Origin: a virus
Taxonomy: Duplodnaviria > Caudoviricetes
IMG/VR virus record: IMGVR_UViG_3300044453_000224
Span: 1-25,660 of that record
DNA: 25,660 nucleotides
Reading direction: 5' to 3' (one strand)
The translations under genes were made by a program, and so were the position numbers. The notes under the pieces are model-generated. The model did not search any database, was not told the origin of the DNA, and was given only the letters and a program-made list of their open reading frames with translations. Positions within the stretch are counted from its first letter, which is position 1. Every line of letters starts with the position of its first letter. Shown here one piece after another: positions 7,232 through 23,876 of the stretch.

Positions 7232-9450
7232 TTACTTGAGCCAGTGAGCGAGAAAACTACGGCGCTTATCGGCCTGCACGGTTTGCGCGCAGTGCTTCAT
7301 GCCCCAGGCATCACCAATTAAAATACAGGCCCGCGCTGCACGAGTGACGGCGGTATAAAGCCAATTGCGGTGATGCTGAAAGCTGTGGGCTTTATGGCAG
7401 ATCACGATCACACAGGGCCACTCACTGCCTTGCGCTTTATGCACAGTCAAGGCATAGGCGAGTTGGAGCCGATCCCATTTTGCTTTTGGCACTCGCACTA
7501 CGCGCCGATCAAAACGGATTGCCAAGGCATCGACTGGCTTGCCATCGTCATTGGTGATCGTGGTGCGATCTTCAATGACCCCAATTTGTCCGTTAAACAC
7601 ATCCAGGTCATAATCATTGCGGGTCCACACGACTTTATCACCGATGAGCAGTGGTTGTCGTTTGCCAAAGCCGCCAACGCGCCATGCCGCCTCGATGCGA
7701 TCATCGCCGTGGACCAATCGTTGGATGAAGACGTTGAGCGCTTTGGTACCGAGTGGTCCTTGATGGGTCGGTGTCAATATCTGTACGTCGCGCAAACGCT
7801 GTGTGCCGGTGTAGCCAAGCTTATCTGGGATAATTTCTTGCCAGAGTTGTTCAAGAACACCAGGGATGCGTCCGACGTTTTGATGGTTATTGAGCACATG
7901 CCAACTGGTGCGCTGTTCATGGAGCATGCTGTCATCATCGCGGGCTGTCTTGGCGAGTTCACCATCTAGCACCGCCAAACTGTTTGCACGCAGTACCCCG
8001 GCTTGCCGCATTACTTGATGCAGTTCGGTAATCGGCAGGGAATCGGTTGCTAAGACATCGCGCAAAAACGCGCCCGCGCCAACGGGTGGTAGCTGGTTTT
8101 TATCACCGACAAACACGACATGGGTATGCGCAGTATCGAGCGCTGCTGTTAGGCGATAGCTCAGCTCCACGTCATTCATGGATGTTTCATCGACAATGAC
8201 AAGATCAGCATCGAGCGGGTTGTCCTCGTTACGCTGCCAGCCCTCAACAGGGCTATACTGCAAGAGGCGATGGTGGTCATGGCTTCAATGTCACAGCCAG
8301 CCTTGCCGACTTGTTCAGCCATACGCTGGGCTGCTTTGCCAGTCGGCGCAGCCATGGCGACGCTGAAGCCAGCATGAGTAGCAATACGAACAATCGTCGC
8401 GATGGTAAATGTTTTGCCGACTCCGGCCCCACCAGTAATGACGCTGGCACGATGGGTAAAAGCTGACAATGCTGCCAAGTTTTGTTGTTCATTCATGTGA
8501 GCGGGCAGCTGGGCCAAGACCGTTACTTCATCGAGCAACGGATCATTGGTCGCGTTGGCATCGTGTATCCAGTCAGCAACGGCTTGCTCCCATTCGGCGA
8601 TGTGTGGCAAGCAATACGCAGTCGTCGTACCCAGGCGATGCCGTCCTACGTCATCGCATACCACCAGAGCATCGAGCTGGTTGGCAATCAGCGTTGTTGC
8701 GTCGAGTTCGTCGAGAGCCAAGACGTTGACCCCGTCGCGCACCAAGTCGGCATGTGCCATCCAGCAATGACCCTCACGAGTGCTTTCTTTGATGAGATGT
8801 AGTAAACCTGCTCGCACGCGGCCCGGATGTCGTTTGGCAACACCGAGTCGTTGCGCGACTTGATCAACCCGTGCAAAGCCCAAGCCGTCCGCCGCACCAA
8901 CCAAGCGATACGGATCCTCTGCTAAAAGAGCGGCAGCATTGGGACCGAGTGTTTGGCAAATGGTCGTGATTTGATGATACGTCAAACCATACGCAGCGAG
9001 TCGCGTGGCAACCGCATTGACGTTCGCACACGCCTGCCACGACTGTGCAAGTTGTGCCACATGATCGGGATTAAGGCCAAAGGCCTTGCAAAGTTCTTCT
9101 GGCCGGTGCACTAATACATCACCAAACTCGGCGCCATAGCGTTTGGCAATTTGCTGTCCTTTTTTCGGACCAATACCTTTAGCATCCGGATGCACGGCTA
9201 AGAAATGCGCCAACCCGGCAGCATCCAGAGGCAGATCAATAGTCATCGTGGTCGCGGCAAATTGACGTCCGTATTTCGGATGCACCGACCAGACACCATG
9301 GAGCGTGATGGTTTGCCCGCTGCTAAGGAGCGCCGGGCAGGTGAAGGTCTGCGGTTGGCATTGATCAGACGGAACAATCGTGCCGATAGTGAAGCGGTCG
9401 TTGCTGAAGCGAATGTGCCGAACGGTGCCGGCCAGCGTCGTAGTACTCAT
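7232..9450 (-). pseudogene. recD2: RecD2/TraA-like SF1B helicase split by a 1-bp deletion at 8273/8274
   Basis: The 5' ORF carries HPKYGRQF, HhH GIGPKK, GGAGVGKT and APTGKAA. The 3' ORF carries IVDETSM, GDKNQLPPVG, YALTVHKAQGSE and LYTAVTRA. Adding one T restores MTIHRLLQY. A sequencing error is also possible. Confidence 0.85.
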
Positions 9451-9923
9451 GAAATATCCTTGCCGTGCAAACGGCGTGCTGTGCGTGCTAACCAGGCTGT
9501 TGCCCACAGGCGGGCATGCGGTCGGTCACCAGCGAAAAAAACGGGAACCTGATAGTCAACCTGAGCAGAAAGAGCTCGACCCAGAATGGCGCGGGGAGCG
9601 GCGGCAGAGCGCTGATGTTGGGCAAAAACATCTGGCAATCCGGCTTCAACGACGATCACTGCGGTGGTGAGCGCACTCAATCGTTGTAGTTCACGGTGCC
9701 ATCGCTCGGCGTCATGGATGACCGTGTGCGTCCAGTCAGCCAACGATTTGCGCTCGATAACGCACTCCTGCTCCAAACCAGCCAGCGAATAATCACCGGT
9801 TGCGAGCGTTGCCGGTTGCACCGCAATGTCGGGTTCAGCCCACGTCCACGGGCGTTGTTCGCGTCGATCAACAAGAATGGTGAGACGCGGGTTACGCCCG
9901 TGGCGTGCGCTGTTACCTGGCAT
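9447..9923 (-). CDS. ERCC4-domain nuclease (putative resolvase)
   Basis: ILVDRREQ, LATGDYS and IERKS motifs; coupled to both neighbours. Confidence 0.88.
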   Translation of the reverse strand: MPGNSARHGRNPRLTILVDRREQRPWTWAEPDIAVQPATLATGDYSLAGLEQECVIERKSLADWTHTVIHDAERWHRELQRLSALTTAVIVVEAGLPDVFAQHQRSAAAPRAILGRALSAQVDYQVPVFFAGDRPHARLWATAWLARTARRLHGKDIS

Positions 9924-12263: not shown

Positions 12264-12809
12264 TTAGCAGTAGCCATCCAGACCGGCTTGACGGAACACA
12301 CGTCTGATGTCCTCAATGGCCTGATAGACCTTGCGTTTTGAAATACCAAGCATGCGTGAGACCGCATAGGCCGAATGGTGCGGCAATAGGCGACAAATAT
12401 CCTGCTGAATTGCCGATAATTTTTGCATGACCGTTGCAATATCTGTTTTTAAATCTGCATGGTTGATGGCGCTGCCAGCCTGGGGATCGATTAAGGTATC
12501 GGCTTGCTGCCCAGATTCTTCATCGCTATCGAAAACGATGGCGCGGTCTTTGAATGCATCACGGCACTGGCGACGCTGGCGGCGAATCAGATCAACGGAG
12601 CGCCGTTCCAAGCAACGGGTAAGATAGGTTGACCATTTCCCGGCAGCCTCGTTAAAGGACTGGTGGCAGATGAGTGCCTGCTGGGCCAGTTCTTGCTTGA
12701 GATCGTCGCGGTCATTTTCGGTAAAACCGTGACGGCCAATCAAGCGACTGACATGGTGGTGAATCGTGGTCTCGGTGTACTCGTCGAGACAGTCTACAAA
12801 TAGTGGCAT
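12264..12809 (-). CDS. Phage sigma-70 family (ECF-like) sigma factor
   Basis: Region 2 DRDDLKQE...FNEAAGKWSTYL...RSVDLIR; region 4 HTH AVSRMLGISKRKVYQAI. Confidence 0.85.
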   Translation of the reverse strand: MPLFVDCLDEYTETTIHHHVSRLIGRHGFTENDRDDLKQELAQQALICHQSFNEAAGKWSTYLTRCLERRSVDLIRRQRRQCRDAFKDRAIVFDSDEESGQQADTLIDPQAGSAINHADLKTDIATVMQKLSAIQQDICRLLPHHSAYAVSRMLGISKRKVYQAIEDIRRVFRQAGLDGYC

Positions 12810-12887
12810 CGTTGTGCCCTCGCTGTGTGGCAGCCCCCGAGTGGGGCCGCTTCACAGGCGCGGGCAGTTGCACGACATCACAGCATG

Positions 12888-12915
12888 AAAAAAGGCCGCT
12901 ACCGAAGTAGCGACC
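12888..12915 (-). terminator. Intrinsic terminator upstream of the sigma gene
   Basis: Minus strand GGTCGCTAC-TTCG-GTAGCGGCC-TTTTTT: 9-bp stem with one G-U pair, cUUCGg tetraloop and U6. Confidence 0.8.
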
Positions 12916-12981
12916 AGAGCGAGGTTTATGAGCCTACTTGCAACAATCGCAGTTGCACAAGTGAACAGCGATGCAAGTGGG

Positions 12982-13914
12982 TTACTGATAGAGGAGCGGG
13001 TTGAAATCCTGAATGCGATATTCGTCTTCGGCAATGGCCCAGAGTTCTTGGACTTTGTGGCCAAGCGGTGAGCTATCTTTAAGGCGGCGACTGATGGTTG
13101 ATTCGGTGGTGTCACAGAGCTTGGCAAAATGTTTTTGCTCTGGTCGTGGCAGAATTGTGCCCGTCTTTCGCCAAGTGTCTTGTGATGAGCGAATATGCGC
13201 GACCAATTCTTGCCGCAGTTTATCAAGGCCAGCTTGCTTGGTGGCTGTCTTGGCAACCTTTGGTTTCCGTGCTGGGGCGCTTGGCGTTAGAACTTCGATC
13301 AGATCTTCGACCAGCGATATGAGTTGATGGGTGTCGTCGTCTTCATCTAAGTATGCCCACAGGGTATGACTCAACGCGACATCCGGACAATAATCTGGTA
13401 CGTTGAGTTGCGGACCAAATGACAGCAAGACGGTTCGAGGTGTGAGTCCTAGGCTATCCCATTGCGCTCGTTTCGATCCTTCCGGTATATCGCGAACAAA
13501 CACGAAACGAAAACGCATATCGCCGATGGAAATGCGAGGCAGGCACCAGGCTGAATCAGTCAGTGCTTCAGCTGCGTGTCGAGAGCCAAGTGCAGTGCCA
13601 AACCAATTGATGAGCGCATGGTGATCTACGCGATATTGCTGGAACAGTGCCGAGTCAACGGATTGAAAACCGGCATCGGGGCAATGCACAAAGAAGCGGC
13701 TACTGTCGGTCGGACTGCGGTGGATTTCCACATCGTGTATCTCCGAACAGGCTGGGCAGGGAATGCGGCTGGCATGGCCAGAACGAACCAGGAACCCGGC
13801 ATCGAGCAAAGCAGAGCCGACGCCAGGGGTCCATGTGTCGAGGTCAGCTTGCGTGACATGGTGATCACGCAGCGGACTAAGCGCTTGCAGCGCGTGGGTG
13901 CTCGTCGGAAACAT
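12982..13914 (-). CDS. Hypothetical protein with Cys/His cluster and C-terminal HTH
   Basis: CPACSEIH...HCPD; C-terminal QKHFAKLCDTTESTISRRL is HTH-like. Confidence 0.75.
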   Translation of the reverse strand: MFPTSTHALQALSPLRDHHVTQADLDTWTPGVGSALLDAGFLVRSGHASRIPCPACSEIHDVEIHRSPTDSSRFFVHCPDAGFQSVDSALFQQYRVDHHALINWFGTALGSRHAAEALTDSAWCLPRISIGDMRFRFVFVRDIPEGSKRAQWDSLGLTPRTVLLSFGPQLNVPDYCPDVALSHTLWAYLDEDDDTHQLISLVEDLIEVLTPSAPARKPKVAKTATKQAGLDKLRQELVAHIRSSQDTWRKTGTILPRPEQKHFAKLCDTTESTISRRLKDSSPLGHKVQELWAIAEDEYRIQDFNPLLYQ

Positions 13915-15091
13915 CGACGCCCCAATCCATCAATAGTTGTTCGCCAATTTGTTGATAGTGATCTTTGAGATTGCCAACATTGCAGGCCCCAATGCGACTG
14001 ACGCCAAAGCTAAATGCGGGGATGCGACCACCAGCAGCGGGACGCGGCAAATGGACGCTGAAGACTACCCGTTGCAGGTCGATATTGTGAATCGGAATCC
14101 GGCGTGTGTTCAGCCACTCGGCAAATACGTCGTAGATGTCCTCTGGCCCTTTATCAGGGTCAGCCTTGATCGTCATGGAGCGCTTACCACCACCGAGCAC
14201 CCGTAAGCGAACTTCCTTGATTCGGGCGTCTTGCACCACAGTGGGGTCAAACGGCAAGGTGCGTTGATAGCGCAAGTGGTCGAGCTGATAACTGCCCACG
14301 CGGCGATTATCCAGGTCAAATTCTACTGGCACTGACGGCACGCAGCGACCAAAGATGCGTAAGATTTCATTACGAACCGGATTGCCACCAGTGGCAGATA
14401 CATCAGCGAGACCACCGTTCATCGGGCACCGAATGTAGACCGTGAACACGCGGCCTGCGTCGATTTCGCGCTTGAGGGCATTTTGGCTGGTGAGCACTTC
14501 GCGGGCGACGGGATAATCCGACAGGTATACACTGAACAAACAGGTACCATCTTCGCGCTGATCGACTTCGATCACGCCAAATTGTCCGCGCGCCTCATGT
14601 TGTTTGTAATAGGCCGAGAGAGCTTGGCGGAATTGCTCGCAGGTCTGCTCATCCGTCCGAGGTACGAACGCGGGCAAATCGTCATAGCGTTGCCATGAAC
14701 GACCGTAGGCCAGGTCGTCGGCAGTGGCAAAGCGCACGATAGTATCCCAGATGTCGTGCTGCTCGACTGCTACAGACATGACAAAATCAAGGACATGATC
14801 AGCCTGCTCAAGGGCGACCGTCTGGTCGATATTTTTGAACATACGGCAGGCTTCGAGGATGGATCGAATGCCGATTTCACTGGTCATGGCGAGCACGTCG
14901 TAGAAATCAGCTGCGACCGTTGCGTTGGTCGCATCATCCAAGGCCTCCCAGGCGGCTTGCACCTCTGGCCATTGGCTGGAATCCAGCGTGTCCCAATCAA
15001 GGCCAAGATCGATGCCTTTGGAGTGGAAGTAGTTACGGAGAGTGGTGAGCGTGGTCCGGCGGAACACTTGGCTCGGTTTGAAACGCAGCAT
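13877..15091 (-). CDS. Hypothetical phage protein (404 aa)
   Basis: Long ORF with AAGGAG RBS; overlaps the next gene; no recognised motif. Confidence 0.8.
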   Translation of the reverse strand: MLRFKPSQVFRRTTLTTLRNYFHSKGIDLGLDWDTLDSSQWPEVQAAWEALDDATNATVAADFYDVLAMTSEIGIRSILEACRMFKNIDQTVALEQADHVLDFVMSVAVEQHDIWDTIVRFATADDLAYGRSWQRYDDLPAFVPRTDEQTCEQFRQALSAYYKQHEARGQFGVIEVDQREDGTCLFSVYLSDYPVAREVLTSQNALKREIDAGRVFTVYIRCPMNGGLADVSATGGNPVRNEILRIFGRCVPSVPVEFDLDNRRVGSYQLDHLRYQRTLPFDPTVVQDARIKEVRLRVLGGGKRSMTIKADPDKGPEDIYDVFAEWLNTRRIPIHNIDLQRVVFSVHLPRPAAGGRIPAFSFGVSRIGACNVGNLKDHYQQIGEQLLMDWGVDVSDEHPRAASA

Positions 15092-15372
15092 TGGTTAAAC
15101 TCCTTCAGTCATGCGTCAGGTCAAAAAGGCGGAGCCAAACACACGGTGTATCTGGTCCTCTACCACCTATACGCCAGGCGGTAACAGCGGCCCCAGACAC
15201 GAGGAGTTCCAGGCCACTATCCTATGTACGCTGAGCGGTAACAAGGAATGGCGCTGGCAATGGCCTATATAGGTCTATACTGACACAAATGCAAGTCTCT
15301 CTTTGGAAGTCGTTACAGAGGCAGCAATTACGATCTTGTTATTGGGATACGTTTCCTATCTTAGCCCTCTTT

Positions 15373-16083
15373 ATGCCTTACGACCACGCTATGACAGTCT
15401 CATTACCTGATGAAGGTGAATGGATTGACTCGACTGATGCCGAGTTGATGGAGGCCATACGCCTGTGGAACGATGACCGGCCTTTTGCGCTTGGTGCCTT
15501 TCAAGCATTGTATGCTCGCCACGCTCAGTTCGTCGCGAATCAGTGCGCGAATGCCTGTCAGGCACGACCATTACGCGATTTCGGTCACTTGGACCTCCAG
15601 CAAAAAATCTGGATCAAGGTTCGCGCGAAAGCGGACTCATTTAAGCCTGAACGAGGTAAACTCGTAGGCTGGCTAGCACGTATGATCCATAACGCCTACA
15701 TGGACGAGCTTCGTGCTCGCAAAAATCTTCCATTGTGTGCTCTACCTGATTGTCCCGAAGCTTATCCTGCGGAGCTCATGGGCTACGTGGTCGGTGACGC
15801 GCCGGCTACCCGGCAATGTCGTTGGGTGCTTGCGCTACGAGATTGTTTGCAAGATTTGCCGACCAAAGAGCAAACAGTGGTAGAAGCCTCTGCACCGCAT
15901 TATCATCCACCAGACATGAACTGCACCATGAGTACAGAAGAAACAGATGCCCTAGCGACACGGCTCGGTACGACGCGGGCATCTGTGAAAGCGTATCGCA
16001 GCCGGGGGTTGAAAAAGTTGCGCATCTGCATCCAACATAAGTTGGCGGAACACGGTATAGATGTGGAGGAGAAACGTGGCTAA
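15373..16083 (+). CDS. ECF-type RNA polymerase sigma factor
   Basis: AFQALYARH, DLQQKIWIKV and FKPERGKLVGWLARMIHNAYMDELR (region 2); LATRLGTTRASVKAYRSRGLKKLR (region 4). Start uncertain (15289, 15373 or 15391). Confidence 0.85.
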   Translation: MPYDHAMTVSLPDEGEWIDSTDAELMEAIRLWNDDRPFALGAFQALYARHAQFVANQCANACQARPLRDFGHLDLQQKIWIKVRAKADSFKPERGKLVGWLARMIHNAYMDELRARKNLPLCALPDCPEAYPAELMGYVVGDAPATRQCRWVLALRDCLQDLPTKEQTVVEASAPHYHPPDMNCTMSTEETDALATRLGTTRASVKAYRSRGLKKLRICIQHKLAEHGIDVEEKRG

Positions 16084-16423
16084 GGCTCACCAACACGACC
16101 ATACCGAGACGATCCTTGATGCGATGGCGCTGCTTGGCTGGCGTGATGCACGTCCTGATTTTAATTGGGATGCTTACCAGCGAGCAGAAGGCCCAGCTGA
16201 AGTGCTCGCATTTGATCAGGTTGTGGCTGCTTTAGACGACGATGCTCAGCAGGAAACGAGCGAGCAAGATTGCGCTCCTATTCCCTTTGTGATTCCTGAG
16301 GCTGTCGAAACCAATATGCGGATGGTGGCACGTAACGGTCAAGATATTCCGGACGAAATTGCTCAGAAAATGCAGCGAGATCGTTTAGCGGCCCAGGCGG
16401 CCCAGGATAATAACGATGCTTGA
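16076..16423 (+). CDS. Small acidic protein, candidate anti-sigma or peptidase substrate
   Basis: GTG 16076 with GGAGGA RBS; overlaps both the sigma stop and the peptidase start. Function inferred from position. Confidence 0.7.
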   Translation: MAKAHQHDHTETILDAMALLGWRDARPDFNWDAYQRAEGPAEVLAFDQVVAALDDDAQQETSEQDCAPIPFVIPEAVETNMRMVARNGQDIPDEIAQKMQRDRLAAQAAQDNNDA

Positions 16424-17318
16424 TGCGCGGCAGCAGAGCGTCGCGCAATTGGCTGAAACATTGGCGTGTTCTTATTTCCCGACAGGGCGTGTTGACCCCG
16501 AAGCCATTATTTCTGATCAGGGTAACGTGACGTTTTCGCGTTCTGAATACGGCGACTACTTTGACGGCCAGCTCCAGTATGTGCAGGGTCAGTTTCATAT
16601 TTTCTGCAACACTGAAGGTAGAAACGAACGACGTCAGCGTTTTACGCTCGGCCATGAATTGGGGCATTATTTTATAGATGAGCACCGCTTGTGGTTGGAG
16701 TCCCATCCAGACTTGCCACATTGCTCCTTCTGTCTCGACGACAGTGACCGACCTGGCAAAGCCATTGAGGTCGAAGCCGATTGTTTTGCCGCCAGCCTCT
16801 TACTTCCAGAGCGCTCTTTGCGAAAAAAAGTTGGGACACCTGCCGCTACTGCTGAAGTTATTCTGAACACGGCTGATTATTTTGATGTTTCTTTAACGGC
16901 AACAGCGCTGCGGTTTGCCAACTTAGAATTGTTCCCATGCGTGCTCATGCATTGGGATCGCACTGGGACGCGAACATGGATACGAGCATCAGCTTGGATG
17001 TTTCAAAATTATGGTGGACGTGTCTGGCGCAGTGATTTGCAGGGCATGGATGATTCTGTAACCGCGCGCGTGCTCCGTGATCCAGACGGAGCAAGCCGCA
17101 TCGAAGAAGCAACCTCAGTATTGGAAGCCTGGTATCCTGGCTTGGAACAACGGATGAACCAACATAAGCGCCAATTCGCCCAGTGTGCCGTCGACACCAT
17201 TACTGAATACGCCTTGAACTTAGGGCCTCATGGTGTGCTGACCGTTTTGACTAGTAATGAACTATGGAAGAAATGGCGTACTCAGCGCCAGTCAAACGCA
17301 GGAACCTCAGCACAATAA
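16416..17318 (+). CDS. ImmA/IrrE family zinc metallopeptidase
   Basis: RFTLGHELGH (HExxH), EVEADCFAASLLLP, HTH-like ADYFDVSLTATALRF, and an extended C-terminal domain as in IrrE/CapP. Confidence 0.92.
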   Translation: MLDARQQSVAQLAETLACSYFPTGRVDPEAIISDQGNVTFSRSEYGDYFDGQLQYVQGQFHIFCNTEGRNERRQRFTLGHELGHYFIDEHRLWLESHPDLPHCSFCLDDSDRPGKAIEVEADCFAASLLLPERSLRKKVGTPAATAEVILNTADYFDVSLTATALRFANLELFPCVLMHWDRTGTRTWIRASAWMFQNYGGRVWRSDLQGMDDSVTARVLRDPDGASRIEEATSVLEAWYPGLEQRMNQHKRQFAQCAVDTITEYALNLGPHGVLTVLTSNELWKKWRTQRQSNAGTSAQ

Positions 17319-17403: not shown

Positions 17404-18033
17404 ATGCATATCGAGCAATGGCCTATTGAACGGGTCCAACCGTTTCCTGGCAATCCGCGTAAAATAACCGAAGCAGCTATCGACAATGTGGCGCAGTCCT
17501 TGGCCGCATTTGGTTGGCGGCAACCGCTGGTTGTCGATGCAGACAGTGTGCTGATCGTTGGCCATGTGCGCTATCTTGCGGCGCGGAAATTGGCAATGAC
17601 CGACGTACCAGTGCATGTCGCCGATAATTTAACACCAGAACAAATTGCTGCGTATCGATTAGCTGACAATCGCGTCGGTGAAGATTCCTCATGGCATGAA
17701 GGTTTATTAACGCAGGCATTGCAAGATTTAACTGGCGACATGCAGCAAGTGACTGGTTTTAGCAGCGATGAATTAAATCGATTAGTTGGCACATTAATCG
17801 ACAACACCGAACAAAGTCATCAAGAGTTGGACACGGTCGTTGCTGATGTTAGTTGCGAGGCCGATCCTGATTCTACCGATGATGACGGTAAAGAACTTGG
17901 CGCGACGACTAACGATTTTACCTATCAAGAACAATTCGGAGTCATGGTCATTTGCGAGAGCGAACGACATCAGCAACAGGTGTACGAATCACTCCAGGCT
18001 GACGGTCATAACTGTCGGGTGGTGGTGGTATGA
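17404..18033 (+). CDS. ParB/Srx N-terminal domain protein with small C-terminal domain
   Basis: PGNPRK, SLAAFGWRQPLVVD, VGHVRYLAA and AYRLADNR motifs; acidic linker; about 36-aa C-terminal module. Confidence 0.88.
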   Translation: MHIEQWPIERVQPFPGNPRKITEAAIDNVAQSLAAFGWRQPLVVDADSVLIVGHVRYLAARKLAMTDVPVHVADNLTPEQIAAYRLADNRVGEDSSWHEGLLTQALQDLTGDMQQVTGFSSDELNRLVGTLIDNTEQSHQELDTVVADVSCEADPDSTDDDGKELGATTNDFTYQEQFGVMVICESERHQQQVYESLQADGHNCRVVVV

Positions 18034-19175
18034 AAATTGAAGTATGCAACCAATGCAGTGACTTTCATTCCTACCGATCTGCTCGGGTGAAATCATTATT
18101 TAATGCTGAATCAGGAGCGAATTTTAATCTCGATGTGGATCTTGATTTGGCACCGGATGAAGATTGGCGTATTGGTGTGGTTGTCGGCCCATCAGGATCG
18201 GGCAAGACATCTATCGGGCGACAGTTCTTTGATAACGAACCGGCTTGGTTTGAGCCAGCTTGGCCAGAAGATGTGCCGATTATTGATGCCATTGATCCAG
18301 ATGGGGATTTCAATGCTGTCACCGCAGCACTCAGTGCTGTCGGTTTGGGAACTGTGCCTGCGTGGCTGCGACCATTTCATGCCTTATCGATGGGTGAACA
18401 ATTCCGCGCAACACTAGCGCGGTTATTACTCGAAGCGCCTACCCAATCTGTCATCGATGAATTTACCTCCGTCGTGGATCGGCAAATTGCGCGAATCGGT
18501 GCGTTGGCCTTTGCTAAAGCTTGGCGACGGCTCAAGCCAGCACGCCAAGTGGTTTTGCTGACTCCGCATTATGATGTCCTGGAGTGGCTGCAACCTGATT
18601 GGGTGTATGATACCGGAAAACACGCCTTTCAACGGGGGTGGCTTCGGCGACCTTCCATCGAACTCGATATTCTCCAGACAGACTGGCGTTATTGGCCGCT
18701 CTTTGAACCGCATCATTATTTGAAAGCACCGCTCATGCCCGCATCGAAATGCTATGTGGGCACGGTCGATGGGGAATTAGTCGCCCACCTTGCGGTCAGT
18801 TGTAAGAACAAAGGTAAGCATGTTGAAGCGCGTGCTTGTCGTTTGGTCGTGATGCCGGAATGGCAGGGTGCAGGCGTTGGTTTACGATTTTTGAATTGGA
18901 TCTGTCAGCATCAGCTTGATGGCGGTGATGGTGCGCGTTTGCCTTATCCCGCGACGACTGTTTTTCATACCAGCCATCCTGGATTATGTGCAGCACTGCG
19001 CCGGATGCCACAGTGGACGCAACTCTCAGCTAAATTACATGGCGGTAAAAAGGGTCCGAAGTCCTGCCAGATGAATCGCCATAAAAAAGTATTTCTTGGC
19101 ACTGGTTACGGCGGTCATTTCCGTGCAGTGCAAGGCTTTCGCTACATTGGCACACAGGAGTCAGCGCATGTATGA
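18030..19175 (+). CDS. Soluble ABC-type ATPase fused to a GNAT acyltransferase
   Basis: Walker A GPSGSGKT, signature LSMGE, Walker B VIDEF, H-loop TPHYD. C-terminal RLVVMPEWQGAGVG is the GNAT CoA-binding motif. No permease nearby. ATGA-coupled to the ParB-like gene. Confidence 0.88.
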   Translation: MKIEVCNQCSDFHSYRSARVKSLFNAESGANFNLDVDLDLAPDEDWRIGVVVGPSGSGKTSIGRQFFDNEPAWFEPAWPEDVPIIDAIDPDGDFNAVTAALSAVGLGTVPAWLRPFHALSMGEQFRATLARLLLEAPTQSVIDEFTSVVDRQIARIGALAFAKAWRRLKPARQVVLLTPHYDVLEWLQPDWVYDTGKHAFQRGWLRRPSIELDILQTDWRYWPLFEPHHYLKAPLMPASKCYVGTVDGELVAHLAVSCKNKGKHVEARACRLVVMPEWQGAGVGLRFLNWICQHQLDGGDGARLPYPATTVFHTSHPGLCAALRRMPQWTQLSAKLHGGKKGPKSCQMNRHKKVFLGTGYGGHFRAVQGFRYIGTQESAHV

Positions 19176-19782
19176 TCCCGACCCCTTACGACTTGGCTTG
19201 GTTGGTTCGCGTTCGTTTGGCCGCGCTGTTCTAGAATTACTTGATCATCGTAGTGGCGTCGTTGTCGAGCAGGTGATTGCCCCGACTGGCGATGCGTTGG
19301 CCCGTGCTGCCGGAGAACGCTATGCAGGCGCTTGGCTGAGCGATGAGGTGATATTTCCCAATTGTGATCTGTATATTGCCGCGCAGTGCCAGACATTTAT
19401 TGCACCCCAGGTACTTGCATCGCCCAAGCTGGGTGTGCTTGCCTGGCATCCAAGTTTACTACCTGTGCATCGTGGCGGCGATGCCGTGCGGTGGACCATT
19501 CGAGATCGTGATCGCATCGCGGGCGGTTCGATTTATTGGATGACGGACCGCGTTGATGCTGGTCCCATCGCTCGTCAGGATTGGTGTTTTGTGCAACCAG
19601 ACGACACCGCCAGTTCGCTATGGCGACGAGAATTGTTCCCGATGGGTTTGCGGTTATTGGATGCGGTTATTGGTGATGTCTTGATGGGCCGTGAACAGCG
19701 CAGGCCACAAGACGAAACAGTGGCCACTTGGGAGCCAGTTTTTAAGCAACCTGATTTACGTACTCAGAAAGGAATATCATGA
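19168..19782 (+). CDS. Stand-alone 10-formyl-THF-dependent formyltransferase core domain
   Basis: ATG 19168 with AGGAG RBS; HPSLLPVHRGG and VDAGPI motifs; lacks the C-terminal tRNA-binding domain of Fmt. Confidence 0.88.
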   Translation: MYDPDPLRLGLVGSRSFGRAVLELLDHRSGVVVEQVIAPTGDALARAAGERYAGAWLSDEVIFPNCDLYIAAQCQTFIAPQVLASPKLGVLAWHPSLLPVHRGGDAVRWTIRDRDRIAGGSIYWMTDRVDAGPIARQDWCFVQPDDTASSLWRRELFPMGLRLLDAVIGDVLMGREQRRPQDETVATWEPVFKQPDLRTQKGIS

Positions 19783-19824: not shown

Positions 19825-20247
19825 ATGCCGATCTATCATGCGCTTTCTCTCAAACAGCCGTGGGCCAACTTGATCCGCGATGGCCACAAAACCATCGAGA
19901 CCCGCAGTTGGCAAACGAACTATCGTGGCGAATTATTGCTCTGTTCGAGCAAGCAACCTGCTATCGCTCCGGCAGGCATGGCAATTGCACTAGTGACAAT
20001 AGTCAATTGCCGGTTGATGGCTACCGGAGATTGGCACCACGCCTGCATCGATCCGACCGGCCAACGGCTTCGCATGACCACCGCAGCAGCGGCACTACTG
20101 GACATCGAACCGGTCGTGCTCCCACCGCGCGCAAAAACGTTTGGTTGGCATCTAGAACAGATCAGGCCCGTAGAACCCGTACCAGTAACAGGGACGCTCG
20201 GCGTGTTCCAAATCGAACTGCCAGAACTGCGAGTACTCGCTCTCTAA
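19825..20247 (+). CDS. ASCH (PUA-like) domain protein
   Basis: ALSLKQPWANLIRDGHKTIETRSW...YRGELLL and C-terminal PVTGTLGVF are typical of ASCH. Confidence 0.9.
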   Translation: MPIYHALSLKQPWANLIRDGHKTIETRSWQTNYRGELLLCSSKQPAIAPAGMAIALVTIVNCRLMATGDWHHACIDPTGQRLRMTTAAAALLDIEPVVLPPRAKTFGWHLEQIRPVEPVPVTGTLGVFQIELPELRVLAL

Positions 20248-20466: not shown

Positions 20467-21261
20467 ATGACCTCCGACCAGTCTGGTCCGGTAACACAGC
20501 CGGACAATTCCCAACTTGTATTGGCCCAACAGGCCCATGCGTATCAAGCTCACGGCAGACCGCCAGGACAGGATGGCATGGCCCATCTCAGCGATGCCGC
20601 ACTCGTGACGGCGATAGCTGGACGACGCTCGACCAGCAAGCGTGTGGCCGAAGCCATTGCTGCACCGCCACCGGTACTCGATGCAGCCCATTACAGCAGT
20701 GCCGAACTTGCCCATTGCTATGGGCTGACTCCAAGCGGCACCCGCCGTCTGGTAGCAGCAATGGAACTACATCGTCGCATTCAACAGGCCGAACGACCAC
20801 CACGCAACACGGTGCGCAAGCCAGAAGACGTAGCCGAAATGATGGCACCACTGGCGAACCTCGATCACGAACGCTTGTGGTGTCTGGCACTCGATGTGCG
20901 GTCATCACTGATCGGCGAACCGCTATTGATTTCGGTTGGCGATGTCGATGGCACCGATGCCGGGCCGCGCAGTTTTTTCCGGATGGCATTACGCACGGGA
21001 GCGGTATCAGTCATCGCGGTCCACAATCATCCGAGTGGAGCGGTACAGCCGTCACAAGCCGACCTTGCGGTCACCAAGCGGCTCGTTGCCTCTGGAGCTA
21101 CGCTGGATTTGCCTTGTGTCGATCATGTGTTCATCGCCGCAGGCGACCGCTTTACCAGTATCCGTCGCCAGCGGCAGGATTTGTTTACGGCTTTGACGGC
21201 ACGGGACAGTGTGCATGAAGCCAGACGATCCCGCTACCACTATGACTGGAGAGCCGCATGA
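20467..21261 (+). CDS. radC: RadC-like JAB domain protein
   Basis: DHERLW, HNHPSGAVQPSQAD and CVDHVFI motifs. Start is 20467 or 20578. Confidence 0.88.
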   Translation: MTSDQSGPVTQPDNSQLVLAQQAHAYQAHGRPPGQDGMAHLSDAALVTAIAGRRSTSKRVAEAIAAPPPVLDAAHYSSAELAHCYGLTPSGTRRLVAAMELHRRIQQAERPPRNTVRKPEDVAEMMAPLANLDHERLWCLALDVRSSLIGEPLLISVGDVDGTDAGPRSFFRMALRTGAVSVIAVHNHPSGAVQPSQADLAVTKRLVASGATLDLPCVDHVFIAAGDRFTSIRRQRQDLFTALTARDSVHEARRSRYHYDWRAA

Positions 21262-21406
21262 ATCTCCGTCATCTCAAGCTGCTCTATCAATCCCATCAAC
21301 CACTCTCGCGTTATTGGCCACCGGCTTGTTGCGTGTCCTCGCTCAACAAGCGGGCCAAGCACGGACAGCAAACGACCAAGATCGACCTCCAGACCAGGAG
21401 GACTAA
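21215..21406 (+). CDS. Small hypothetical protein upstream of DUF2924
   Basis: Short ORF with a LALLATGLLR helix ending 3 nt before DUF2924. Start and frame are uncertain; an alternative ORF runs 21258-21413. Confidence 0.35.
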   Translation: MKPDDPATTMTGEPHESPSSQAALSIPSTTLALLATGLLRVLAQQAGQARTANDQDRPPDQED

Positions 21407-21409
21407 GGC

Positions 21410-21943
21410 ATGATTCGCGTTGATGATCCACTCACCTCAGACCAACGTGCTGAACTGTCGGGAGCTATCGCAGCTTTGGACTCCATGACCATTGGCGAAT
21501 TACGTCGTCGCCATCGCACGGTGTTTGGTCAAGCAACCAGTAGCCGTCACCGCTCTTGGTTGGTTCGCCGCATTGCCTGGAAGCTGCAAGAACAAGCCGA
21601 AGGCGGACTATCAAAACGTGCTCAAAACCGTGCTGCTGAACTGGCTCAAGGGTTGCCGTTTCGAGAACGACGCCCGAGCGATCATCACTCGACCGCTCAA
21701 CCCGTCGCAACCAAAGTCGTTGCCCTGCCCGCTACTGCTCATGATCCGCTGGCTCCAGGGACTGTCCTGCGTCGTACGTGGCAAGGCCAAACCATTCAGG
21801 CCACCGTACATCCGCATGGTTTTGAATATGATGGTACCATGTACCGCAGCCTCAGCGCATTGGCTACGAAAGTCACCGGCACCAAATGGAACGGCTACAC
21901 CTTTTTCGGCCTACGCAAACAACGGAAGGGGCAGCAAGCATGA
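21410..21943 (+). CDS. DUF2924 domain protein
   Basis: LVRRIAWKLQEQAEGGLS, PGTVLRRTWQG and YRSLSALATKVTGTKWNGYTFFGL; AGGAGG RBS; coupled to the recombinase. Confidence 0.88.
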   Translation: MIRVDDPLTSDQRAELSGAIAALDSMTIGELRRRHRTVFGQATSSRHRSWLVRRIAWKLQEQAEGGLSKRAQNRAAELAQGLPFRERRPSDHHSTAQPVATKVVALPATAHDPLAPGTVLRRTWQGQTIQATVHPHGFEYDGTMYRSLSALATKVTGTKWNGYTFFGLRKQRKGQQA

Positions 21944-23445
21944 CCACTGCGACAACAACTAAAACCGTTGCCATCTATTGCCGCAAAAGCACTGAGGAAG
22001 GACTCGATCAGGCGTTTAATAGTTTGGATGCCCAACGACAAACCTGTGAACATTTTGTTGCCAGCCAAACCCATGATGGTTGGGAAATCAGTCCAACTCG
22101 TTACGACGATGGTGGCTTCTCTGGTTCCAATACGCAGCGCCCAGCATTGACCCAACTCATCGCCGATATCAATGCCGGTCTCGTTCAGGTGGTTGCTGTC
22201 TATAAGCTAGACCGACTGTCGCGCTCACTGACAGACTTCGTCGACTTATTGCGCGTACTGGATAAGCATAATGTCGCCTTTGTTTCGGTAACGCAGCATT
22301 TTAACACGGCAACGCCCATGGGGCGCTTGATGCTCAATATCCTCATTTGTTTTGCGCAATTTGAGCGTGAAAATATGATTGAGCGCGTGCGCGATAAAGT
22401 AGCCGCCGCGAAGCGCCTCGGTCGTTGGTGTGGTGGCCGACCTGTCTTGGGGTACGACGTTGCGCCTGGTGGCGGCAAACTGTTGGTGAACGACTTTGAG
22501 GCTGAGCGTGTCCAAGCGATCTTTCAATTGTATCTCGATTGCGGGAGTCTCAGCCTGACGGTGCAAGAACTTGCCAAACGTGGTTGGACCACCAAGGCGT
22601 GGACGACAGAGAAAGGTAAATTGGCAGGCGGTAAAGCTTTCGCTAAAAGTACCTTGGCGAAGATGCTCAGCAATATCTTATACACAGGTCGCGTGCGCTA
22701 CCGCGAAGAAATCTATCCAGGCGAACATCCGGCAATCATTGATGAAAAACTTTTTCATCAGGTACAACAGTATCTCGCACAACAAAAACGTACCGGCGGA
22801 CCAACAGCCCGCGTAAAGCATCACGTCTTATTGCGGGGTATTTTACGCTGCGGTCATTGCGACTGTGGCATGACGTACACGTACACGAAACGCAAGAATA
22901 AGCTGTATGGTTATTATACCTGCATTCGCAGTCGTGAACGTGGTGCCCATACATGCCCCATGCCCAGTGTGCCTGCTGGTGAAATTGAAGCACTGGTGGT
23001 GCAAGAAATCAAAGCGATTGCTCAATCGCCTGATCTGATTGATCAGGTGCTCAGCGAAGCAGTACGACAACATCAGGCAACCATCGCTGAATTGGAAACC
23101 CGTTTGGCTGAGGCTGAGGCTCTCGCTGCTCAGGCTACCAAAGTCGCTGAACGTACTCCCGATGACCCGACTCAGGCTGGTTTAGTTCGCCAGGCCGAAG
23201 CCCAACTCACTACGTTGAGGCAGTCGCTTCAGTCTGTCAAAGCCAGTGCACCCAATAAAAAGCTCGCTCACCAAGCACTCAAACGCTTCGATCCGGTGTG
23301 GGCTGAATTGTCACCCAAAGAAAGATGCCAACTGCTGCAAAGTCTGGTCAATCACATCACGCTTGATGGTCATAACGGTACCTTGTCGTTTGCGTTTCAT
23401 TCCGAAGGCATCGCCGCTCTCGCTACGCATGAGGCCACGCCATGA
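21940..23445 (+). CDS. Large serine recombinase (integrase)
   Basis: Catalytic YCRKST, YDDGGFSG, YKLDRLSR and FAQFERE; recombinase domain; zinc ribbon CGHC...C...C; coiled coil. Confidence 0.95.
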   Translation: MTTATTTKTVAIYCRKSTEEGLDQAFNSLDAQRQTCEHFVASQTHDGWEISPTRYDDGGFSGSNTQRPALTQLIADINAGLVQVVAVYKLDRLSRSLTDFVDLLRVLDKHNVAFVSVTQHFNTATPMGRLMLNILICFAQFERENMIERVRDKVAAAKRLGRWCGGRPVLGYDVAPGGGKLLVNDFEAERVQAIFQLYLDCGSLSLTVQELAKRGWTTKAWTTEKGKLAGGKAFAKSTLAKMLSNILYTGRVRYREEIYPGEHPAIIDEKLFHQVQQYLAQQKRTGGPTARVKHHVLLRGILRCGHCDCGMTYTYTKRKNKLYGYYTCIRSRERGAHTCPMPSVPAGEIEALVVQEIKAIAQSPDLIDQVLSEAVRQHQATIAELETRLAEAEALAAQATKVAERTPDDPTQAGLVRQAEAQLTTLRQSLQSVKASAPNKKLAHQALKRFDPVWAELSPKERCQLLQSLVNHITLDGHNGTLSFAFHSEGIAALATHEATP

Positions 23446-23876
23446 GCTTTACGGTCGAACGACGATTCCATTTGAAAACTCGCCCTGGTCGCAGCGGTGG
23501 CTATCGGAATCTCACTCAAGCAGGCAAGGATCCACAACATGAATTACATGAAATTGAAGAAGATCATGATAGCTCTGTTCACCCATTTGCCCGCCGCATG
23601 GCCATGGCTATCGAGTGTAAACGCCTCATCGATGAAGGCATCGTTGAAACCGCTGCCGAACTCTCACGAATTGCTGGCGTCACGCGCGCTCGTATGACCC
23701 AAGTACTCAACCTGACGCTACTCGCTCCAGATATTCAAGAAATGCTATTAGAGCTAAACCCGTCCGACAAAATTGATCGTCATGCCGTGCGTCGGGCAAC
23801 GCAGTGTCTTGTGTGGTCCGAGCAACGGGAGACACTTACTTTGTTAGAGCGTGATTTCTTCGTCGTTTTAAGCTAA
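23442..23876 (+). CDS. Recombinase-associated HTH protein
   Basis: AAELSRIAGVTRARMTQVLNLTLLAPDIQE HTH; ATGA-coupled to the recombinase. Confidence 0.8.
   Translation: MSFTVERRFHLKTRPGRSGGYRNLTQAGKDPQHELHEIEEDHDSSVHPFARRMAMAIECKRLIDEGIVETAAELSRIAGVTRARMTQVLNLTLLAPDIQEMLLELNPSDKIDRHAVRRATQCLVWSEQRETLTLLERDFFVVLS

Follow-up and report, generated by a model that had tools for sequence, protein, structure and literature searches.

The N-terminal domain of 10-formyltetrahydrofolate (10-formyl-THF) dehydrogenase (FDH-N, or ALDH1L1-N) places a formyl group on a phosphopantetheine thiol. LctF, encoded in the lactacystin cluster, is described as forming formyl-CoA from 10-formyl-THF and CoA in vitro, and this formyl-CoA is taken by a polyketide synthase (PKS) AT domain (PMC11730586). 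Formation of formyl-CoA from 10-formyl-THF by HypX was proposed in PMC6802093 and is reported as shown in PMC12134894. In FMT, ArnA-TF as well as GART, a catalytic Asn occupies the position of FDH Ile104 (PMC4388273, section 3.2). For phages, Iyer et al. 2013, as cited in PMC7824862, predicted that a DNA base is acylated by a GNAT linked with an ABC ATPase. According to PMC3299994, transposable phages carry mom or DNA methylases in the slot after the tail-fibre genes.

The window, by which we mean the whole stretch of 25,660 nucleotides analysed, is a viral record of 25.7 kb that is ~51% complete. It contains an overlapping gene run in which a ParB-N protein precedes an ABC-ATPase-GNAT fusion and a formyltransferase, and an ASCH gene follows (Table 1). 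We infer that the ParB-N frame starts at ATG 17404, GTG 17395 being possible; it overlaps the ABC-GNAT gene by 4 nt. The formyltransferase frame starts with ATG and shares its first 8 nt with the end of the ABC-GNAT gene, stop codon included. At its C-terminal end (~40 residues, 17908-18033) the ParB-N protein matches a stand-alone protein of ~50 aa (49-54) located before ABC-GNAT in Mu-like phages, which is more likely a cassette adaptor. In Porphyromonas phages this stand-alone form is annotated 'acr candidate'. We rejected the ASCH gene as a core member of the cassette; tblastn found it in one of the best 80 of 299 viral formyltransferase stretches, making it an occasional companion.

Table 1 Coordinates of features in the window (positions without prefix) and in related loci (prefix L).
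Feature	Position	Strand	Match or remark
RecD2-like helicase gene	7232-9507	-	frameshift near 8250; same letters in runs X1 and X6
Regulatory block	12264-17318		two sigma-70-like genes, 120-aa ORF, IrrE/ImmA-type peptidase
Two long ORFs	12982-15091		adjoin regulatory block; no Pfam match
ParB-N protein	17404..18033	+	ParB_N (Pfam); phrog_620; phrog_28816 on residues 170-210
ABC-type ATPase fused to GNAT acyltransferase, 381 aa	18030..19175	+	phrog_11143, E 4e-142
LctF-family formyltransferase, 204 aa, catalytic core only	19168..19782	+	phrog_9240, E 2e-42; predicted 10-formyl-THF:CoA formyltransferase
ASCH-domain protein	19825..20247	+	Pfam ASCH, E 5e-9
Integration module right after cassette	20467-23876		RadC/JAB, DUF2924, serine recombinase, 144-aa ORF
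LctF-type loci	L119:5779-6474, L115, L124, L130, L131, L135, L138, L146		
Internally deleted cassette	L194:6081-6473		part of ABC-GNAT frame joined to formyltransferase end
Annotated aspartate decarboxylase (Gordonia phage Jace gp87)	L213:3481-3906		after distant ABC-GNAT, in formyltransferase slot
160-aa ORF downstream of cassette	L022:6277-6756		no Pfam match; presumably Mom-like, by motifs
Family member without GNAT (plasmid pKV29)	L221:4001-4603		beside IS91 transposase and fatty-acid hydroxylase/desaturase gene
LctF-family core fused to ACT domains, betaproteobacterial subclade	L134:6001-7161, L152, L163, P0134-P0253		

The formyltransferase matches an unnamed phage family (phrog_9240). 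Pfam finds Formyl_trans_N alone (E 4.9e-20), with no Formyl_trans_C and no carrier or aldehyde dehydrogenase domain; this bears out the initial annotation, made from the letters of the sequence, in which a tRNA-binding domain had been noted as missing. The segments quoted there (LAWHPSLLPVHRG, AVRWTI, GGSIYW, PDDTASSLWRRELFPMG and PQDETVATWE) are all found in the ORF, and the Asn of the Fmt/PurN motif is indeed lost: residues 66-195 align to FDH 78-207 without gaps, which places Ala92 opposite FDH Ile104. In the same alignment His94 pairs with His106, Ser96 with Ser108 and Asp130 with Asp142, so that the His94-Ser96-Asp130 triad is intact in a stand-alone core. An Asn two residues before the His occurs in 0 of the 194 collected family sequences. 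Assignment as fmt, PurN, ArnA or PurU was rejected on scores far under all their curated cut-offs (fmt 56.6 against 201.5 bits needed; PurN 35.6 against 150.1). A PDB sequence search gave 37 matches, of which the top six are all 10-formyl-THF dehydrogenase (90-97 bits), compared with at most 45 bits for the matches that follow (WbkC, Fmt). The AlphaFold model has a pLDDT of 88.9, and the first five chains returned by Foldseek are FDH; Fmt reaches equal TM-scores (~0.8), so the fold hardly discriminates and is weak evidence.

To represent LctF we used putative ortholog loci, with orthology resting indirectly on the strains of Table S5, the cluster layout and the primers given in PMC11730586. 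The strains of L119 and L135 are named in that table as carriers of lct-type clusters, and the ends encoded by the lctF primers of the same paper agree with L119 at the start and with L115 at the end. L119, which was mapped in full, has the lactacystin layout: KS-AT-AT-ACP-C, stand-alone KS, P450-like, MbtH-like, formyltransferase. In this list, P450 and MbtH are labels taken from sequence reading together with the layout in PMC11730586. Several other LctF-type loci belong to strains outside Tables S4 and S5 of that paper. The match between the window enzyme and that of L119 reaches 51% over 128 aa (139 bits), and the best blastp scores of the window enzyme by group are 140 bits for LctF-type enzymes, 110 for FDH and 63 for amine-type and other outgroups.

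We placed these sequences in a tree of 50 hand-chosen rows under LG+G4, a model without mixtures. The rows were 18 phage, 3 LctF-type, 4 cellular, 7 FDH and 4 bacterial FDH-like sequences plus outgroups; architectures were checked for the FDH and bacterial FDH-like rows, and outgroups were labelled by motif and Pfam. A single branch with support 100/100 unites the window enzyme with the phage, LctF-type and cellular enzymes. This family joins FDH, HypX-like enzymes and a Porphyromonas enzyme at 97/95, apart from Fmt, PurN, ArnA-like enzymes and NRPS domains; the join between the Porphyromonas enzyme and HypX brings long branches together, and we draw nothing from it. AU tests reject placement of the window protein with FDH (p 6.8e-7) and with Fmt (p 0.001). 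The initial annotation had called the enzyme a thiol-formylating one of ALDH1L1-N type rather than an Fmt, and had proposed profile search and phylogeny as the check. The choice of thiol type over Fmt stands, given the grouping with FDH-N and HypX-like enzymes and with the LctF orthologs and the lack of any clustering with Fmt, PurN, ArnA-like or NRPS formylation domains. The likeness to ALDH1L1-N holds insofar as FDH-N provides the best solved relatives; membership of that group does not, since the AU test makes the family a sister instead.

What the present analysis adds is the link to LctF, whose putative orthologs are nested among the phage enzymes. The LctF-type rows sit within the phage rows at 99/98, adjoining a Gordonia phage enzyme, and a phage clade without LctF and cellular rows is rejected at p 0.011, for a group chosen after a quick tree had been seen. 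This nesting suggests that the lactacystin pathway may have recruited lctF from an actinophage; it also means that the activity of LctF could be derived. FDH-N, HypX and LctF, three characterised enzymes placed around and inside the family, all formylate a pantetheine thiol, which by parsimony suggests the same of the phage family. We consider it probable that the family makes formyl-CoA.

The proposed acceptor enzyme lies next door. The ABC-GNAT protein has a Walker A motif (GPSGSGKT), a DEF Walker B and the CoA-binding sequence QGAGVG, whose Q279, G280, G282 and G284 are invariant in 57 aligned rows; we take the QGxGxG of GNATs to be the CoA pyrophosphate loop. Among solved structures the GNAT has no close relative, its weak PDB sequence matches being only to generic acetyltransferases, and a Foldseek search with the two-domain model gave ABC ATPases alone, which is uninformative on the nearest GNAT.

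The query used to collect viral loci was built by aligning 40 homologs out of the 120 listed, a single-sequence query against viral contigs having given no matches, and we kept the best 80 of 299 stretches, several of them near-duplicates. A GNAT lies upstream of the formyltransferase in 79 of these best 80, the sole miss having 119 nt of upstream sequence, and a ParB-N protein or its short C-terminal piece is present in 68. Full ABC-GNAT-formyltransferase fusions were found twice (P0121, P0122), each on one short contig, and P0364 joins an FDH-like enzyme and another GNAT in a single protein. In Porphyromonas phages the partner of the same GNAT clade is a different formyltransferase, also lacking the Asn and 27% identical, whose best PDB matches are FDH and then HypX. 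This enzyme is a second, predicted thiol-type lineage at the same spot.

Among the 22 closest ABC-GNAT phage records, 21 also match the formyltransferase; among 38 distant ones (29-41% identity, among the matches listed), none appears in the 42 formyltransferase-matching records. The 33 fetched viral loci with ABC-GNAT comprise 19 with the formyltransferase, one deleted remnant, nine without it and four that end too soon, so that the gene is missing in 9 of 29 informative loci with close GNATs. In a tree of 46 of the 75 dereplicated rows, the eight close GNATs that lack it are dispersed and require eight changes. Its repeated absence near close GNATs indicates that the gene is dispensable, which fits a supply gene that the host can replace, but also fits an optional second step. 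We found no GNAT residues that separate formyltransferase-linked from unlinked copies, and no formyl-specific pocket. In Gordonia phage Jace, the formyltransferase slot after a distant ABC-GNAT holds an annotated aspartate decarboxylase, an enzyme class that feeds CoA synthesis.

We propose that the formyltransferase likely moves a formyl group from host 10-formyl-THF onto CoA, and that the neighbouring ABC-ATPase-GNAT likely uses the resulting formyl-CoA to formylate a target, probably an amine on a phage DNA base. The formyltransferase would be an optional donor supply; where a cassette lacks it, the host would be the source of formyl-CoA or acetyl-CoA. Supply of formyl-CoA to the adjacent GNAT had been put forward in the initial annotation. 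The linkage and the fusions speak for it, the frequent absence of the formyltransferase and unusual residues of the window copy speak against, and on balance we lean narrowly towards formyl-CoA from the window gene serving this GNAT. We infer that the window copy is active, that the GNAT accepts formyl-CoA, what part ATP plays and that DNA is the target.

If the preceding steps hold, DNA is the favoured target, on the strength of the published base-acylation prediction, a mom-like genomic slot and a methylase in the place of ParB. In three records of transposable-type phages the cassette comes after the tail-fibre genes, and in Vinitor-27 an adenine methylase occupies the ParB slot. A protein or RNA might instead receive the formyl group from the GNAT, for example host RNA polymerase, a virion or packaging protein, or tRNA. 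Protein-modifying phage GNATs are described (PMC7824862), TmcA is an ATP-using GNAT that acylates a tRNA cytosine, the cassette often abuts terminase genes in other records, and the weak PDB matches of the GNAT are all generic acetyltransferases. The mom-like slot, the exchange with DNA methylases and the ParB-N partner, its short stand-alone form counted, in 68 of the best 80 of 299 viral loci argue against such a target, which we regard as unlikely. In the open literature we found no report of an acylated phage DNA base, nor is any carrier known to have a modified base. In the open-access literature, Iyer 2013 and the 2020 ABC-ATPase classification aside, we came across no description of the chemistry of the cassette, of a link between phage formyl-CoA and GNATs, or of a phage relative of LctF; those two works, including their supplements, may already mention the formyltransferase.

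The window copy itself departs from its family. It carries Gln73, Gln75, Trp93 and Gly104 at positions where homologs have His, His, Tyr and Arg (116, 107, 118 and 117 of 119 homologs, respectively, and all 10 LctF-type rows), and with Gln73, Gln75 and Gly104 it lacks the family signature of an HxH loop and HRGRD. Sequencing error was rejected as the cause of these residues or of the frameshift in the RecD2-like gene, as the same letters recur in other runs. It is conceivable that the family makes formyl-CoA while the window copy is weakened or inactive, part of a decaying prophage-like element. Besides the four altered near-invariant residues, this would be in keeping with the RecD2 frameshift (in runs X1 and X6), the repeated loss of the gene among relatives and the internally deleted cassette at L194, in which part of the ABC-GNAT frame is joined to the formyltransferase end. 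On the other hand, the frame is full-length and retains the triad and 31 invariant family columns. Other distant members likewise have Gly104 and non-His residues at 73 and 75, positions at which FDH also lacks His. The unusual residues are moreover identical in contigs of other runs, a coral-reef study among them. We consider a weakened or inactive window copy quite unlikely.

The patchy presence of the gene could also be accounted for by an optional second step, in which the enzyme would N-formylate an amine directly, for example on an aminoacyl group that the GNAT had transferred Mom-style from charged tRNA, or, as proposed for DpdN, on preQ1 in phage DNA. Precedents are fdPreQ1 with the proposed role of DpdN (10.1101/2023.04.13.536721) and the use of Gly-tRNA by Mom (PMC13219725). 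The Asn required by amine-formylating enzymes is missing from all 194 family rows, however, and the tree groups the family with thiol-formylating enzymes. LctF, the sole tested family member, uses CoA (PMC11730586), the GNAT keeps its canonical CoA-binding motif, and no deazaguanine gene is present among the 24 window ORFs scanned in this ~51% complete record. Direct formylation of an amine is distinctly improbable.

Outside phages the family is also found without a GNAT. The 80 genome loci kept among the matches listed comprise 11 with a GNAT, 54 of a cellular subclade without one, 7 phage-type loci without one, and 8 Streptomyces or Kitasatospora genes beside NRPS/PKS genes. Querying for the cellular subclade gave 1737 longer matches. 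In a large betaproteobacterial subclade the core is fused to ACT domains, and Bradyrhizobium relatives have the bare core; the ACT-fused proteins are possibly amino-acid-regulated formyl-THF/CoA enzymes. The selected neighbour ORFs scanned did not support a place for the cellular subclade in oxalate operons (frc/oxc). That the phage gene is an auxiliary gene which acts on the one-carbon metabolism of the host, by hydrolysing 10-formyl-THF or exchanging formyl-CoA, and gives no direct service to the GNAT, is highly improbable: the GNAT-free cellular loci (54 of 80 among the matches listed), the ACT fusions, reminiscent of a regulated deformylase, and the hydrolase activity of FDH-N (PMC4388273) would suit it, but a GNAT stands directly upstream in 79 of the best 80 of 299 viral loci, stop and start codons overlap, fusions occur and a second formyltransferase lineage replaces the first at the same spot.

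The preferred reading, formyl-CoA supplied to the GNAT, gives a possible chemistry to a widespread phage cassette that was predicted in 2013 and has so far been without one. With its third gene assigned to the family of LctF, a formyl-CoA synthase, the cassette has a named donor and a predicted mass shift of +28 Da, and the Gordonia cluster DR phages are carriers that can be cultured, which makes the question directly testable. Taken as a whole, the picture remains tentative: in phages of many phyla, a dedicated formyl-CoA synthase would arm an ATP-driven GNAT that writes an undescribed N-formylated DNA base as camouflage against restriction, and the LctF of lactacystin biosynthesis would stem from such a cassette in an actinophage. 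If true, it would provide a GNAT that uses formyl-CoA and a new mark on DNA bases, a compact route from folate to formyl-CoA usable by one-carbon engineers, and a phage origin for an enzyme of an antibiotic pathway.

Among the known systems, DpdN resembles the window enzyme as a phage formyltransferase tied, by proposal, to a formylated DNA base (10.1101/2023.04.13.536721); by its description it differs in acting, as proposed, on preQ1 and in needing the deazaguanine pathway, and neither DpdA nor the FolE-QueF pathway is found among the 24 ORFs scanned in the window, which belongs to a record that is ~51% complete. Mom of phage Mu is a late phage GNAT that modifies DNA, as is proposed for the GNAT of the cassette. 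By its description it uses Gly-tRNA, and the text of the Mom paper (PMC13219725) mentions neither 'ATPase' nor 'formyl'. The system of Iyer 2013 has the same ABC-GNAT fusion in phage (PMC7824862), and the pT24 ABC-GNAT named in that paper is a distant match of the window protein (35%). It remains a prediction whose acyl group is unspecified in the available text of PMC7824862, and pT24 and other distant members are without the formyltransferase.

HypX's N-terminal domain is Asn-less as well, lies on the same side of the tree and makes formyl-CoA (PMC12134894). It is distant, on a long branch, and is fused to a decarbonylase domain, its product staying bound and giving CO. FDH-N is the best solved relative by sequence and fold, with a non-Asn residue at 104, equivalents of His106, Ser108 and Asp142, and a thiol acceptor, whereas the window enzyme is without the C-terminal subdomain, the carrier domain and the aldehyde dehydrogenase domain and belongs to a separate sister clade. 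LctF feeds a PKS AT domain, whereas the neighbour of the window enzyme is a phage ABC-GNAT; the window copy, with its predicted activity, also lacks the family residues His73, His75, Tyr93 and Arg104. In all other respects compared, LctF is alike: it falls in the same family (100/100), is a stand-alone core of ~200-230 aa without the Asn and with the His-Ser-Asp triad, and adjoins an acyltransferase that might accept formyl-CoA.
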